A stretch of 64,000 nucleotides of DNA from Octopus sinensis. Its lineage: Eukaryota. Below are positions 12,895 to 40,705 of the stretch, piece after piece. The notes below the pieces were generated by a model, which was not told the origin of the DNA, did no database searches, and saw only the letters and a program-made list of their open reading frames with translations. Made by a program: the position numbers and the translations under genes. Where the stretch lies: positions 39,494,001-39,558,000 of the forward strand of contig NC_043010.1 in assembly GCF_006345805.1 (NCBI RefSeq), read 5' to 3'. Numbering within the stretch: position 1 is the stretch's first letter; each line of letters opens with the position of its first letter.

Positions 12895-13498
12895 TATATA
12901 TATATACATATAAGTTTGTATTTGCAAAATATCTCGTAACAATTTAGCGCTCCTAACTAGAAACATCAGTGTGCATCTCAAAATCCGTACGTACAAACAT
13001 TAAGCCCTGATCTTTTATGGTTCGAATATATATATTTCCAAATATGCGTGTAAGCTTATATTTTAATGTCCTAAATAGATTTAAGAAACAGATATTTACA
13101 AATAACAAACTGAAGCGTAGATAATGTTTTTGGTCCATTTCATTCGGGTTTTTGAAATATTGTTTTACACTTGAAGTAATGTTTTCTTATCAAATAAGAT
13201 TGGTTTCCATTCTCTTCCTTCCTCTCCATATTCTGTGATTGCGTACGTGTGCCTATGTATATGTTATGTGTGTATATATATAAATAGACATATGTGTGTG
13301 TGTGTGAGTCTATGTATGTGTATATTTATAGGTGTGAGTATTGGTCTTTTATGTGAAGATATTTGTTTAAATGTGCATATATATACATACATATAATATA
13401 TGCACAGAAACACACAGACTCAAAAATATATACATACATATATACATGCATATATTTACATACAAATATATATATACAGTAATATATATACATATATG

Positions 13499-13529
<31 letters not shown>

Positions 13530-13533
13530 CTAC

Positions 13534-13571
<38 letters not shown>

Positions 13572-13747
13572 CTACATATATATATGTATATACATATATA
13601 TATAAATATATATATATATACATATATCACAATCAAGGAACGGCCATAATAGGCCATTCACCCACTAGAAATAACAGCCAAAGCTTCAACCGCAAAATAA
13701 CATCAATTCCGTAAACCAGGAGAAAATTAAAAAACATTTACCCTGTA

Positions 13748-13854
13748 ATTTCTTATACGATGCACCGTTTCATCTACTTTTTAATGGTAAACTAACCTGA
13801 TTAAATTAAATCAAGCCAATCTTCTATAGGCCCTTAGAATCATCAGTAAGAAAT
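13748..13854 (-). ncRNA. Type I hammerhead ribozyme, copy 1
   Basis: Minus strand reads ATTTCTTA-CTGATGA-(long stem II)-GAAA-CGG TGCA TCGT-A-TAAGAAAT: perfect 8-bp stem I, intact core, GUA cleavage triplet (cut between 13756 and 13755). Confidence 0.88.
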
Positions 13855-14235
13855 AGCCAAGTCGGAACAGATATTTTCACGAGGCATTTCTGTCCCTGCC
13901 TCGGCAATATCTGACCTAAAAGTTTCAAATCATCGCACTCGCGCCAAATTTATCGGCAGCAAATAAATATAAGCCGCCGATTCCATTACGGAATTAACCA
14001 GAAAATTCATAATTAATCAATATAGGGTGGCAAAAAATTTTGTAGAATTTTTTTGCCACCAGCGGCCTAGTGGGAAAAAAATTAAATAGTCATAGACCAT
14101 TTTTAAGTTCAACATCACAATCAAGGAACAGCCATAATAGGCCATTCATCCACTAGAAATAACAGCCAAAGCTTCAACCGCAAAATAACATCAATTCCGT
14201 AAACCAGGAGAAAATTAAAAAACATTTACCCTGTA

Positions 14236-14342
14236 ATTTCTTATACGATGCACCGTTTCATCTACTGTTTAATGGTAAACTAACCTGATTAAATTAAATC
14301 AAGCCAATCTTCCATAGGCCCTTAGAATCATCAGTAAGAAAT
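14236..14342 (-). ncRNA. Type I hammerhead ribozyme, copy 2
   Basis: Same motif 488 nt away; predicted cut between 14244 and 14243. Confidence 0.88.
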
Positions 14343-15131
14343 AGCCAAGTCGGAACACATATTTTCACGAGACATTTCTGTCCCTGCCTCGGCAATATCT
14401 GACCTAAAATTTTCAAATCATCGCACTCGCGCCAAATTTATCGGTAGCAAATAAATATAAGCCGCCGATTCCATTACGGAATTAACCAGAAAATTCATAA
14501 TTAATCAATATAGGGTGGCAAAAAATTTTGTAGAATTTTTTTGCCACCAGCGGCCTAGTGGGAAAAAAATTAAATAGTCATAGACCATTTTTAAGTTCAG
14601 TATCACAATCAAGGAACGGCCATAATAGGCCATTCACCCACTAGAAATAACAGCCAAAGCTTCAAGCCAAAGCCTGATTTAATTTAATCAGGTTAGTTTA
14701 CCATTAAACAGTAGATGAAACGGTGCATCGTATAAGATGAAACGGTGCATCGTACAGGGTAAATGTTTTTTAATTTTCTCCTGGTTTACGGCATTGATGT
14801 TATTTTGCGGTTGAAGCTTTGGCTGTTATTTCTAGTGGGTGAATGGCCTATTATGGCCGTTCCTTGATTGTGATGTTGAACTTAAAAATGGTCTATGACT
14901 ATTTAATTTTTTTCCCACTAGGCCGCTGGTGCACAAAAAAATCTACAAATTTTTGCCACCCTATATTGATTAATTATGAATTTTCTGGTTAATTCCGTAA
15001 TGGAATCGGCGGCTTATATTTATTTGCTGCCGATAAATTTGGCGCGAGTGCGATGATTTCAAAATTTTAGGTCAGATATTGCCGAGGCAGGGAAAGAAAT
15101 GCCTCGTGAAAATATCTGTTCCGACTTGGCT

Positions 15132-15235
15132 ATTTCTTACTGATGATTCTAAGGGCTATGGAAGATTGGCTGATTTAATTTAATCAGGTTAGTTACCATT
15201 AAACAGTAGATGAAACGGTGCATCGTATAAGAAAT
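15132..15235 (+). ncRNA. Type I hammerhead ribozyme, copy 3 (inverted arm)
   Basis: ATTTCTTA 15132-15139, CTGATGA 15140-15146, GAAA 15212-15215, stem III ACGG/TCGT, cleavage A at 15227, TAAGAAAT 15228-15235. A few 1-nt deletions in stem II. Confidence 0.85.
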
Positions 15236-15768
15236 TACAGGGTAATGTTTTTTAATTTTCTCCTGGTTTACGGAATTGATGTTATTTTGCGGTTGAAGCT
15301 TGGCTGTTATTTCTAGGGGTGAATGGCCTATTATGGCCGTTCCTTGATTGTGATGTTGAACTTAAAAATGGTCTATGACTATTTAATTTTTTTCCCACTA
15401 GGCCGCTGGTGGCAAAAAAATTCTACAAAATTTTTTGGCACCCTATATTGATTAATTATATATACATATATATATATATACAGACATATATATACATATA
15501 TATGTATACATATATATACATACGTACATACATATATATATACATATATATATACATATATATATATACAAATATATATACATATATACATACATATATA
15601 TCCATATAGGTATATATGCATACATATATACATACATATATTATATATATACATATATATATATATACATATATATACATATATATTGTACATACATATA
15701 TATAATTCCTTAAATCCTTAAAAATGTATTAGCCCGAAGGCCGCGGCCATGCTGGGGCACCACCGCTG

Positions 15769-16526: not shown

Positions 16527-16912
16527 GAGAGGACAAACAAAGGCAAGCAAACGGATTAAGTCGATTATATCGACCCCAGTGCGTAACTGGTACTCATTTA
16601 ATCGACCCCAAAATGATGAAAGGTAAAGTCGACCTCGGCGGAATTGGAACTCAGAACGTAGCGGCAGACGAAATACATATTTCTTTACTACTCACAAGGA
16701 GCTAAACACAGAGGGGACAAACAAGGACAGACAAATGGATTAAATCCATTACGTCGGCCCCAGTGCGTAACTGGTACTTACTTAATCGACCCTGAAAGGA
16801 TGAAAGGCAAAGCCGACCTCGTCGGAATTTGAACTCAGAATTTAACGGCAGACGAAATACGGCTACGCATTTCGCTCGGCGTGCTAACGGTTCTGCCAGC
16901 TCACTGCCTTCC
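16527..16912 (-). mobile_element. MetaSINE-type SINE with an internal tandem duplication
   Basis: Two successive cores (aaggtaaagtcgacctcggcggaatt near 16621; aaggcaaagccgacctcgtcggaatt near 16804) and one head (ttctgccagctcactgcctt). Confidence 0.85.
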
Positions 16913-22320: not shown

Positions 22321-22541
22321 GGGTACATAATTATATAGAATACAATTATAATGAAAGGCGCAGACGTAACAATGTATGCTGTAAATAGACGCCAAATACG
22401 TCTAGCCACTCAAAATCTTTACAATATATACAGGTTGAAATCGGAAAATTGGACTGACCAAAGATTCGCAAAAGAATTCAGATAGTTTTAGATCGACCAA
22501 TTAATAACTTACAGTCATCTGCAAAAGTATTATATATATAT

Positions 22542-23354
22542 TTGCTGAAGAGCAAAGGCTACAAGAGGACAGCGGCTCAGATGGAGCGAAAGAGACGGGA
22601 ATTCGTGCGCTCATATGCGCTTATACAATCGCACATTGGCGCACTTGATTCCATCTTTGAGAACGAGCGGGGCAAAGATGGCAAGAATGGAGACGATGAA
22701 AGAAGTCACCCCCACCTGGTGGACGCCCGGGAGGAGGTTTCGAATGAGAAACCTGCCCGGGAAGTGAACCCAGGTGCAAGTTCTCCAACCGGCAGCAAGG
22801 GCCATGGAGACGGAGAACCCGGTGAAAAGGTAGAGGGAGGAGGAAGAACTAAAAGAAGGGCTGGAAGAGCTAAAGGAAAAGCTCAAGCAGGACCAAAGGG
22901 TGAAAAAACCAGGAATAGAAGTGGAACCGCAAAAGATGGAAACAAACAGCGCACACGGGTGTGTAGGTTCTACCTGAGAGGTTCCTGCTGGCATGGAAAG
23001 GAAGGTGCAGGCTGCCACTTTGCGCATCGGGGACCCTGCCACAGAGACACGAGGCAGATGGACAAACCATCAACACAAGGAAAAGGGATGGACCACGCAC
23101 CACTTGCCCCAAAGTGGAGGTACGCAGATGTTGTGCGTGCCACAAACCACCAACATGATGTTGTCGAAAGGGCAGCTGCTGAGCAACAATCTTTTTTGTG
23201 CATGGCACAAAAGATTGTACAGCAGCTGACCTGGCTTCATCAAACCCAAGCCCGCAGGTGGGACTACCCACTATATACCAGACCACCACAGCAAACAGAC
23301 CCAGGATGGACACCACCGGCAACAACGTACACCTCACCTCGATGCTCCTACTGA
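22542..23354 (+). CDS. LINE ORF1 protein with a CCCH zinc finger
   Basis: 270-aa open frame with a basic, low-complexity middle and CRFYLRGSCWHGKEGAGCHFAH (C-x7-C-x8-C-x3-H). True start uncertain. Confidence 0.75.
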   Translation: MLKSKGYKRTAAQMERKRREFVRSYALIQSHIGALDSIFENERGKDGKNGDDERSHPHLVDAREEVSNEKPAREVNPGASSPTGSKGHGDGEPGEKVEGGGRTKRRAGRAKGKAQAGPKGEKTRNRSGTAKDGNKQRTRVCRFYLRGSCWHGKEGAGCHFAHRGPCHRDTRQMDKPSTQGKGMDHAPLAPKWRYADVVRATNHQHDVVERAAAEQQSFLCMAQKIVQQLTWLHQTQARRWDYPLYTRPPQQTDPGWTPPATTYTSPRCSY

Positions 23355-26282
23355 ACATCAGAGGACTGCAAACACTCAGTAACAGGACAAAAATCCCGTT
23401 CCTGAGAGATTTTGTTGCATGCAATCAAGCCTTATGCATAGCACTAACGGAAACGCACCTGAAACCGGATATAGCAGATGCGGAGTTACACATACCACAG
23501 TATGCTGTACTACGGACCGACAGGAAAGAAAGGAGTCATGGATGTGTTGCTATGTACATCCGTGAGGCCCTCACACCCCAGGCCCTCTTGTCATACTCAA
23601 ACTCGGTGTGTGACACACTAATTGTACATATTAGGCTACATATCGCCCTCCAGATGCCCCAAGCCATGTGGGCAAGTTTGAAGACTGCCTTATAAAAATA
23701 GAAGAAGTTCTAACCACATTAGAACAACACATAAGTGTACTTCTTATGGGAGACTTTACTCTGCCCAATGTCAGATGGCCCGAGGGCCTTTCTCTCCCAG
23801 GAATGACAAGATGTGAACGAGGACAGGCGAGGTCCCTCCTGAACCTCATCAACACCCTGTACATGGAGCAGGTAATACTCCAACCAACCAGGGCAGGTAA
23901 CACACTGGATCTCTGCTTCACAAATGACATGGATCTCATCCATAATGTGAAAGTGACACCGACACTACTCTCGGATCACAACATGATAGAGCTGACCATG
24001 TACGGGCCAAAAGAGAGCACGGACATGCAGCCTACAAGAAACCCTCAGAATCTTTCCAGCTTGAACTACCATAAGGCAAACTGGAAACAAATTGAGAAAG
24101 AGATCCTCAAACAAAACTGGCCTAAATGTCTCTCCTCGCCAGACATCGACGTGAAACTTCAACAATTCATGTCTGTAATGCAAGCCATATGCTACAAATG
24201 TGTCCCAGAGAGAAAGGCCACTGTACACAAGAACAAAATCCCCAGAGAGAGGAAAATTTTAATGAGACGGCGTACAAAATTTTCAAATCGCCTAAGCAAA
24301 CAGATTGAAAGCAGTGAAAAGTCCCGCCTAAAAATAAAACTGTTGGAAATCGAAAAATGTCTGCAACTCTCTCATGAAAAGGAAAGAGCAGACAAAGAAG
24401 CCTGGGCTATAGACAACATAAAATCTAACCCCAGAGCTTTCTACATGTATGCCAAAGAAACAGCTACGGTGCACTGTAGAATAGGGCCACTCCTCGAAAA
24501 GGATGGCACACTTACAGGAAAACCAATGAGGGTAAGTGAAATACTGAATGAGCAATTCAAGAGTGTTTTCACTCCACCCCTTGGGCATCTCCAAATCACC
24601 AATCCAACTGACTTTTTTTTTACCACTGCAGATATAAAATCAGAGGCGGCGACGATAGATTACATCGATATAAAGGAAGACGATGTAATCAAGGCTATAG
24701 ATGAAATGAAAACAGACTCAGCTACTGGCCCCGATGGATTCCCGGCAATCCTCCTAAAAGCATGTAAGAGAGTCCTAGCAAGACCACTGCAGTTCCTCTT
24801 TCAGAGCTTCATGGCAGCTGGCAAACTCCCAAGAAAACTGAAGGAAGGTAAAATATGCCCCATTCATAAAGGAGGTAGCAGAGCGGAGGCCAAGCACTAT
24901 AGACCTATCTCTCTGACCTCACACATCAGCAAGGTCATGGAACGAATAGTCAGAAGGAAGCTGATCACCTTCCTTGGAGAGAATGACTTGCTGCCCGACA
25001 CCCAACATGGTTTCCGACCAGGGAGAAGCTGTTTAACTCAGCTCCTACAACACTATGACTGGGTGCTGAAACGGCTGCTCAACCACTCAAATGTGGAAGT
25101 GATATATCTCGACTTTGCAAAGGCCTTTGATAAAGTCGATCATGGAATGATATGTCACAAGCTGCGTGATCTCAACATAGTTGGAAAACTGGGAGAATGG
25201 CTTCATGACTTTCTGAAAGATAGAAGTCAGGTGGTAGTGGCCAATGGGGCCACTTCCATTAACACGCAAATAGTGAGCGGTGTTCCGCAGGGCACTGTTC
25301 TGGGACCACTACTGTTCATAATGGCCCTCTCAGTCATGCCCTCAGCCACGCAGAGAGCCACGATCACAAGTTATGCAGATGATACAAAAGTTTCACAGGC
25401 AATACAGAACCCTGAGGACACTAAACACCTGCAATGTGAGCTAGACAAAATATACAAGTGGGCCGAAAAGAATAGCATGCAGTTCAACGCTGAAAAGTTT
25501 CAAGCTCTATACTATCAGCATGCAAAACTAAATGCAATACCCAATGAATACACTGGACCCGGAGGAATAGCAATCCCAGAGGCACAATCAGTGCGTGACC
25601 TAGGTATTTACATGAGTGATGACGCGACCTTTCGTGTACATGTTGCTAAATTGGCAATGAAATGTAGACGACTGGCCGGATGGATCCTAAGAACCTTTAG
25701 AACAAGAGAACAAGAAACCATGATGGTCCTCTGGAGGACACTTGTCCTAAGCCACTTTGACTACTGCTCTCAGTTATGGTCACCATCCAGTGTCAAGTTG
25801 ATCACAGAGCTCGAGGCGATCCAACGTAGCTACACGAAGAAGATAGCCTCTATGCAGAATGTAAGCTACTGGGAAAGACTCAAGAGATTAAAACTATATT
25901 CCCTGGAGCGTAGGCGGGAAAGATATGCCATAATATACATCTGGAAGATCCTGGAGGGACGTGTCCTGAACTTTGGCATCGAGAGTTACGCAAATGCCAG
26001 AACTGGGCGCCACTGCGTGGTGCCTAGGACTCCAAACTTGCCATCAAGATGTAGGACAAGATTCTGTGATAGCCTGGGCTTCCGAGGCCACAGCTCTTTA
26101 ATATCCTCCCGAAGAACCTGAGAGACCTGCATGGGGTGGATGCAGATGTCTTTAAAATGAAGCTGGATCTCTTCCTGTCAGGTGTCCCAGATGAACCAAC
26201 TTCACGGCAGGAGGGGCAGATGAGGGCAGCTGCATCGAACTCTCTCATGCACCAAATGGCAGTTGCTAGAAAGCTTTCGTGA
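23342..26282 (+). pseudogene. LINE ORF2 (AP endonuclease + reverse transcriptase), frameshifted near 23630-23670 and near 26085
   Basis: APE motifs LLNIRGL, IALTETHL, LLMGDF, TLDLCFT, SDH. RT motifs YRPISLTS, QHGFRPGRSC, YLDFAKAFDKV, GVPQGTVLGPLLF, YADD. CR1-type C-terminus SYWERLKRLKLYSLERRRER. The frame after 26085 continues FKMKLDLFLSGVPDEP to TGA at 26280-26282. Confidence 0.93.
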
Positions 26283-29189: not shown

Positions 29190-29350
29190 ATAGAGAGCAA
29201 GAAACCCAGGTTCTGGAATTAACCAATTTTTATTGGTTTTATTTATTTGTTTGTCTTATCACCTTGTGCTGTATTGAACACCTGATGTGGCTTTAGAGTC
29301 AGGTTTTGACTGCTATTTCAAGCATGATGGTATCTCTAAAATACTCTTAT
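29190..29350 (+). repeat. Short dispersed repeat; inverted diverged copy at about 57661-57815
   Basis: gtgctgtattgaacacctgatgtggctttagagtcaggttttgactgctatttcaagcatg is the reverse complement of catgcttaaaatagcagtcaaaacctgactctcaaaccacatcaagtgttcaatacagcac. Confidence 0.8.
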
Positions 29351-40124: not shown

Positions 40125-40705
40125 TTTTCTGCTCTCGGCAAAATGCCCGAGTTTTGGGGGGAGGGGCACCAGTCGATTATATCGGCCCCAGTACGCAACT
40201 AATACTTAATTTATCGACCACGAAAGGATGAAAGGCAAAGTCTACCTTGGCAGAATTTGAACTCAGAACGTAAAGACAGACGAAATACCTATCTCTTTAC
40301 TACCCACAAGGAGCTAAGCACAGGGAGGACAAACAAGGACAGACATACGGATTAAGTCAATAATATTGACCCCAGTGCATAACTGGTACTTAATTTATCG
40401 ACCCCGAAAGTGTGATAGGGTAAGTGGACCTAGGCGGAATTTGAACTCAGAACGTAGCGGCAGACGAAATACCTATTTCTTTACTACCCACAAGGGGCTA
40501 AACACAGAGAGGACAAAAAGGAGAAAGATACGGATTAAGTCAATTATATCGACCCCAGTGCGTAACTGGTACTTAATTTATCGACCCCGAAAGGATGAAA
40601 GGCAAAGTTGACCTCAGCGGAATTTGAACTCAGAGCCTAACGGCAGACGAAATACGGCTACGCATTTCGCCCGGCGTGCTAACGTTTCTGCCAGCTCGCC
40701 GCCTT
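40125..40705 (-). mobile_element. MetaSINE-type SINE with three tandem roughly 175-bp internal units and a TSD
   Basis: Cores near 40235, 40420 and 40600; head ttctgccagctcgccgcctt. Flanks aatgttctaaagatat and aatgttccaagaatat. Confidence 0.88.

Follow-up and report, generated by a model that had tools for sequence, protein, structure and literature searches.

The window, a stretch of 64,000 nucleotides of the Octopus sinensis genome, contains a 488-nt repeat inserted in a (TA)n microsatellite as two 5'-truncated arms that lie head to head (Table 1). Units are numbered so that q1 is the base directly 3' of the predicted hammerhead cut. The initial annotation had described near-identical 488-bp tandem units at this site, and this is borne out by a TRF period of 488 (2.1 copies, 97% matches, 13626-14665) and by BLAST with one unit as query, in which the window units are 96.5-98.5% identical to one another. 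It was right about the tandem and missed both the third, inverted ribozyme (15132-15235) and the two-armed, Penelope-type architecture of the insertion.

Table 1. Features of the 488-nt repeat insertion (positions in the window)
Feature	Position	Strand	Basis or remark
(TA)n microsatellite, left target-site half	13426..13627	.	TRF
Left arm: q67-488, q1-488, q1-130	13626..14665	-	TRF + BLAST
Type I hammerhead 2, cut 13756/13755	13748..13854	-	
Predicted 488-nt monomer between two cuts	13756..14243	-	GC 0.36
Type I hammerhead 1, cut 14244/14243 (GUA); U·U 10.1-11.1, extended stem II	14236..14342	-	
Head-to-head junction	14666..14752	+	Piece q428-488 (3' half of ribozyme) at 14672-14732
Right arm: q9-488 + q1-235, inverted	14753..15459	+	Long end (site B, q235)
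Type I hammerhead 3, cut 15227/15228	15132..15235	+	Core intact
105-nt tail between sites A and B	15355..15459	+	Conserved hairpin ~15408-15442
(TA)n microsatellite, right target-site half	15457..15704	.	TRF

The left arm is truncated on its 5' side at 14665 and stops at 13626 with a short end (site A, q130), and the right arm merges at 15457-15459 into the microsatellite. At the junction, 22 bp spanning the stem III/cut region are duplicated after the piece q428-488, and the unit that follows lacks its first 8-10 bases. Hammerhead 3 shows three single-base losses within its stem II extension. With a longest ORF of 42 aa and a GC content of 0.36, the unit is non-coding and below 50% GC; it has no apparent LTR, a search of it for a tRNA-like part found none, and the reverse transcriptase (RT) plus GIY-YIG ORF of an autonomous Penelope-like element (PLE) is absent from it.

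Other repeats share the window. A 17-nt motif of the unit (q76-92) recurs in another window repeat family at 29306, 35458, 59519 and 59728, giving nine window matches (five inside the element) against 0.03 expected, and is possibly a protein site common to the two families. A 184-bp SINE-like tandem adjoins (TA)n at 16527-16860 (1.8 copies) and 40171-40655 (2.6 copies), and further tandems have periods of 98, 102, 170 and 224 bp. On the plus strand, 22458-26121 holds a LINE-type retrotransposon with a 298-aa frame bearing a CCCH/Torus-like finger and, 3' of it, endonuclease and RT in two frames.

A hammerhead ribozyme with an extended stem II

On the minus strand, ATTTCTTA-CTGATGA starts at 14342 and 13854, GAAAC at 14259 and 13771, and TAAGAAAT at 14243 and 13755. 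These motif positions place both minus-strand cuts and the intervening 488-nt monomer exactly where the initial annotation had put them, and every part that it listed is present, namely an 8-bp stem I, both core boxes, stem III with a UGCA loop, and a GUA cleavage site. Its description of the unit did not include two peculiarities of stem II, a 60-nt extension and a base formed by a U10.1·U11.1 mismatch in place of a standard pair; in hammerheads the 10.1-11.1 pair is usually G-C. From its sequence, the 488-nt repeat probably carries a self-cutting RNA motif.

The search with the Rfam hammerhead model that had been proposed as a check returned no hammerhead match above the gathering score in the whole 64-kb window, nor any at E<=10. 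Since a sister-family copy with a G-C stem II and the ribozymes of PLEs were missed as well, this result says little. Rfam rows for miRNAs and snoRNAs were rejected as sub-threshold hits to hairpin or (TA)n noise.

In the minimum-energy fold predicted for the window copies the core pairs with stem III, and the hammerhead fold lies 3.3-4.4 kcal/mol above that minimum in the three window copies and 2.0-4.4 kcal/mol above it in all five copies folded. Stem III alone is weak (-0.2), and its self-pairing between two RNAs is predicted at -17.5 kcal/mol, a likeness to dimeric hammerheads that comes from a two-molecule computation on the stem III duplex. The predicted monomer circle is strongly structured (z -4.6, 25 shuffles), as is a second circle (z -6.3).

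Conservation and covariation of the ribozyme

The unit has the CUGANGA and GAAA core, NUH site and open stem I of a type I hammerhead, and its three helices are maintained with compensating changes in other copies. Among 36 distinct copies, 96.6% of stem cells are paired, against 28-47% in slid controls. Three stem I pairs have changed on both sides (8 cells; 0/500 shuffles, a significance inflated by the relatedness of the copies), and at locus L179 the first stem I pair has gone from A-U to G-C. Across the main family and its sister family, stem II reads UCUA/UAGA, UCUG/CAGA, GUGU/ACAC or GCGU/ACGC in different lineages, N7 varies freely (U/C/A), and the cleavage site is GUA or GUC.

A survey of 360 copies yielded 41 haplotypes, of which the 17 seen at least three times were used. 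Stem I is paired in 16-17 of these 17 at each position and stem II positions 2-5 in 14-17, while stem III is invariant or changes from G·U to A-U. The 10.1-11.1 position is a standard pair in only 10 of the 17 and G-C in one; the commonest haplotype (113 of 360 copies, the window included) has U·U, and the natural states are G-C, A-U, U·U, A·A and A·C. In the main family by itself, variation touches 1 of 20 positions in the core and stem III vs 88 of 484 elsewhere, a difference short of significance (P=0.09). Because stems I and II change in a compensating manner with the core and stem III fixed, sequence comparison indicates that the ribozyme fold is under selection. Other copies that do not conserve the core and stems, which the initial annotation had named as evidence against itself, were looked for, and its proposal stands.

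A young, dispersed family and its relatives

Exact matches to a 25-nt core pattern number 1277 in the genome, with none for its reversed control, so that the repeat cannot be put down to chance; at ~1.9 matches per locus, as counted on sequence C1, they would represent an estimated 670 or so loci. The BLAST comparison of unit and genome that had been suggested revealed a dispersed family: in a DNA search of the 2.72-Gb assembly that listed 984 candidates, 40 of these account for at least 246 matches, which have 92-99% identity and are spread over many chromosomes. Units within a locus carry a median of 0.28% singleton changes (30 loci), which implies recent insertion; in older subfamilies, identity to the window unit is 88-93%. 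The dispersed copies (94-98% identical), the short longest ORF and the compensatory stem changes together support the earlier view of a young, non-coding element of the retrozyme kind. A sister family has a unit of 474 nt that is 75% identical (173 exact matches, control 0).

Tandem units, each with a type I hammerhead, occur two or more in a row. The arrays mostly comprise 1-4 units, reach 17, and lie dispersed at hundreds of sites, some with local higher-order repeats. Some insertions (L116, L117 and L118; L145 and L146) recur unchanged, flanks included, at distances of 24-270 kb along the same chromosome; these are segmental duplicates or assembly copies. The repeat is also present in public runs under four organism labels. 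None of these is recorded as RNA; they consist of assembled contigs, and whether RNA was their source can only be guessed. Such contigs cannot show ends, strand or circles, a circle joint being indistinguishable from tandem DNA. We accordingly rejected a public-run sequence that 'goes back 488' as a sign of circles, as tandem DNA explains it.

At least eight other hammerhead-like families with a long stem II and palindromic loop III were noticed within a few hundred kb of PLE-flanking DNA (L063:8021/8416, L067:6037/6629/7129, L068:851, L034:2621, L086:266, L089:593, L065:6519), some of them in inverted pairs, and this genome seems rich in retrozyme families.

Two fixed ends, paired one long and one short

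Among 92 distinct loci surveyed, 62 have two arms with both ends visible. Two 3' end sites recur, A at q130 and B at ~q235 (q228-239), separated by a tail of 105 nt, and 87 of 94 3' ends (loci L101-L160) abut (TA)n. The 62 two-armed loci divide into 54 with A+B, one with A+A (q113/q130) and seven with an odd end; A+B is thus found in 54 of 55 classifiable insertions (P=1.6e-15 vs independent end choice). A score-independent sample of 47 loci (L101-L150 less three duplicates, covering all places on sequence C1 and the first on C2) contains 32 two-armed insertions, always back to back, 29 of which pair an end at ~q130 with one at ~q235. The sister family, for which 16 loci were picked for opposite-strand pairs, gave 13 A+B, one odd end, one cut off and one single arm. 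The architecture is that of PLE insertions, with a partial tandem and an inverted 5'-truncated arm, two alternative 3' ends and a (TA)n target.

The inner 5' truncations are spread along the unit (155 scored) with no clear pile-up at the cut, where 7 of 155 fall vs 2.5 expected (P=0.015) and another 8-nt window holds 8. Arms of more than two units make up 26 of 108, the longest measuring 6.8 kb and some reaching 14 or more units; the site-A arm is the longer in 27 of 54 A+B loci, so neither site goes consistently with the longer arm. Both arms share one template lineage: variants of a minus arm recur in its own plus arm in 219 of 306 cases, vs 1649 of 9802 in other loci. Twenty variants private to a locus are fixed in every unit, or in every unit but one, and 11 of them are present in both arms. 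The short arm of L155 holds two linked variants seen in long-arm units 8 and 12, which suggests a mixed multimer as template. A model in which the short arm is a mirror copy of the junction-near part of the long arm was rejected, as either arm can be the longer and the L155 short arm matches distal units; unit-variant periodicity was likewise set aside as a sign of multimeric circles, being patchy and indistinguishable from local duplication.

The region between sites A and B keeps its hairpins, in which both partners have changed in 3 of 41 pairs, and a hairpin ~20 nt 5' of the long end is conserved with compensation. The odd ends of L129, L131 and L153 (q321, q324, q332) cluster within 12 nt on non-TA DNA and perhaps mark a minor third start site. 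At about 9 of 39 junctions (L115, L121, L133, L139, L156 and others) both arms are truncated at a near-equal unit position, some overlapping by 30-38 nt, as if two cDNAs had annealed at a hairpin.

Autonomous Penelope-like elements of the same genome

The genome has many PLEs of this kind (5029 GIY-YIG candidates), including two young Neptune-like families, A (protein at L065:2532-4874) and B (protein at L063:4745-7069), with intact RT and GIY-YIG ORFs and the CX2-5CxxC linker. Family B, with 961 exact ribozyme matches, has two ends ~45 nt apart, and long and short ends are combined in 12 of 13 two-armed loci (11 by script and L207 by eye; 7 of the 13 judged from ends alone). The exception within the 13 is L208 (long+long); beyond them, L089 is also long+long and L094 fits the rule. 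Neptune-like families (L065, L073) have an extra upstream ORF, of 479 aa with no Pfam match in family A. Their ribozymes are atypical minimal hammerheads with a UUGAUAA or CCGAAGA/CUGAAGA core, and that of family B also has U·U at 10.1-11.1.

By blastn, the unit has only 13-32-nt, chance-level matches in 70 PLE loci (L031-L100, ~10 families of the 5029 candidates), so descent does not name the partner; a 29-nt match in L065 falls outside the PLE and was discarded as a mark of kinship.

Physical association with a PLE was seen once. At L129, a truncated family-B arm (aa 547-775, UTR, pLTR and long end) is joined gap-free, with 2 nt of microhomology, to retrozyme position q321, and the retrozyme arm ends at q130, the short end. 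Among the 92 loci a PLE ORF piece adjoins the repeat only here; no second chimera appeared among 40 scored of 3045 candidates, and 27 other odd flanks proved not to be PLE arms. Private changes number 8 in 921 columns in the B arm (an upper bound) vs 6 in 1856 in the retrozyme. L129 is compatible with one insertion event, which these data do not prove, and could alternatively be a retrozyme insertion beside an older B copy. Caution is called for because the retrozyme and family B share the (TA)n target and because a short inverted piece lying on non-TA DNA terminates L014, L131 and L153 as well.

Relation to known systems

Schistosome Sm-alpha and cricket pDo500 are hammerhead-bearing tandem repeats. 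The octopus family resembles these and newt satellite 2 in its tandem hammerheads and in a weak stem III suited to working as dimers, and differs from them, by description, in its short dispersed arrays; newt and cricket repeats of this kind are cited in PMC7229834. The retrozyme class itself has already been described (PMC7229834; bioRxiv 10.64898/2026.07.22.740005), with metazoan non-LTR members in coral, mussel and axolotl (PMC7229834) and a survey of vertebrate retrozymes (bioRxiv 10.64898/2026.07.22.740005). With these the octopus repeat shares low-GC, non-coding tandem units with one type I hammerhead each, a palindromic loop III and a structured predicted circle. Its 488-nt unit compares with 150-450 nt in PMC7229834 and 51-972 nt in bioRxiv 10.64898/2026.07.22.740005, and it departs from described metazoan retrozymes in the 60-nt stem II extension and in that its circles are predicted only. 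The U·U at the base of stem II is shared with axolotl HHR_Amex2, which cleaves 22% as a monomer and more as a dimer (PMC7229834). One of nine predicted Xenopus retrozymes cleaved in vitro, and 24 of 57 Xenopus retrozyme families match a PLE pLTR (bioRxiv 10.64898/2026.07.22.740005). In the available parts of these two sources no inverted two-armed insertions or fixed alternative ends are described, and the word 'inverted' occurs 0 times in the available text of PMC7229834.

PLE insertions consist of tandem and inverted 5'-truncated copies with a tail of 30-40 bp, often at one end only, and their (TA)n bias is tied to the CX2-5CxxC linker (PMC8557442). On AT-rich DNA, a purified PLE protein cleaves both strands and extends both, initiating reverse transcription at two internal RNA sites, the interval between which equals the genomic tail; in vitro, insertion does not need ribozyme cleavage, and use of the start sites does not differ between the strands (PMC11167929). 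Circles have been proposed as PLE templates (PMC4209133). As in Neptune-type PLEs, as far as these sources describe them, the octopus repeat has partial tandems, an inverted 5'-truncated arm, a one-ended tail, an AT-rich/(TA)n target and a hammerhead upstream of the ends; unlike them it has no ORF, a tail of 105 nt in place of 30-40, and a full-size rather than minimal hammerhead, and it lacks sequence likeness to the PLE repeats sampled in this genome. Giant squid has 235 Hammerhead_1 matches (PMC6962438). Within a scope that excluded most subscription papers, Dfam and Repbase, the literature on retrozymes or hammerheads in Octopus and other cephalopods yielded no description of this family, and the literature on Penelope twin priming and one-ended tails, again apart from most subscription papers, no count of end pairing.

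A proposed cycle and its alternatives

The ends, the arms, the (TA)n target, the shared template and the matching rule in family B show the repeat behaving as a PLE substrate, and we consider it very probable that it is a new non-LTR retrozyme family mobilised by a Penelope-like RT-endonuclease. A full cycle, in which PLE mobilisation is combined with a working ribozyme, is our favoured account, held with appreciably less assurance. The array would be transcribed as a multimer, probably by Pol II, given that the sense strand has three runs of 6-7 U. Some of this RNA would then be cleaved to 488-nt units by its hammerheads, which most likely act as dimers held together by their self-complementary stem III or are assisted by a protein; following the precedent of the family, the units would be ligated into circles. 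A Neptune-like PLE protein may bind the RNA and break (TA)n DNA on both strands. Reverse transcription would be primed from both DNA ends, at q130 on one and q235 on the other, as in the observed footprint. Each cDNA would run back across the cut for up to 14 or more units, the arm lengths observed, which requires a circle or an uncut multimer as template. The two cDNAs would finally stop at variable places and be joined head to head, the arrangement seen in the insertions.

The most serious competitor retains the PLE and dispenses with cutting and circles: uncut read-through multimers would serve as templates, and in the youngest subfamily, the one with U·U, the ribozyme would work slowly or be in decay. 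Several observations are congenial to it, namely the want of a clear pile-up of 5' ends at the cut, the 26 of 108 arms longer than two units, the cost of the hammerhead fold in 5/5 copies (2.0-4.4 kcal/mol), the linked variants of L155, which fit a mixed multimer and not one monomer circle, and the anole PLE, which used mainly uncut RNA in vitro (PMC11167929). L155 can also be explained by multimeric circles or later gene conversion, however, and the 20 private fixed variants, 11 in both arms, fit one circle (as they would a uniform source array). Compensatory changes keep every helix and the core across a sister family that has diverged by 25%, and we regard insertion without cutting as rather unlikely.

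Models that dispense with the PLE fare far worse. The tandem arrays of up to 17 units with local higher-order repeats, and the conserved, compensating hairpin ~20 nt before the long end, could be those of a DNA-level element, either a Helitron/Helentron-type rolling-circle repeat with the site-B hairpin as terminator or a satellite spread by recombination. This is very improbable when both outer ends are 3' ends in the RNA sense, the inner junction is randomly 5'-truncated, autonomous PLEs of the same genome leave the same footprint, and the G·U-tolerant covariation indicates RNA. Twin priming yields inverted 5' parts, and with a LINE present in the window (23183-26121) it could account for the inversions if the repeat were a SINE-like element copied by an ordinary LINE. 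We give this equally little credence: the repeat has no poly(A) or LINE-like 3' tail, no tRNA-like part, U runs in its sense strand, two fixed internal ends, and arms that both duplicate the same sequence.

A bolder elaboration of PLE mobilisation is offered tentatively, as something we doubt more than we believe. The repeat might be an independently evolved circular RNA, not a worn-down pLTR, that exploits a Neptune-like PLE through nothing but the shape of its RNA, with family B as the driver and L129 as a one-event template switch. The near-strict rule of one long and one short end would, on this proposal, reflect a PLE enzyme acting as an asymmetric dimer, with each half committed to a single start site and to a single end of the broken (TA)n.

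Implications

The family belongs to a known class, and the genomic evidence that it offers on how the class moves is good. Arguments about what copies animal retrozymes still turn on co-occurrence and on likeness to pLTRs (PMC7229834; bioRxiv 10.64898/2026.07.22.740005); here the signature of PLEs can be read in the retrozyme insertions, and a PLE family of this genome serves as a control. This insertion architecture is the most informative part of the finding. That a long end goes with a short one says more than that a tail is often found at one end, and it limits how the second half of PLE integration, a step still unsolved, can proceed. The 10.1-11.1 series and the long stem II reveal a form of hammerhead that Rfam misses, and a candidate trio can now be named: a 775-aa protein, the RNA of 488 nt, and a pair of sites at which RT is predicted to start.
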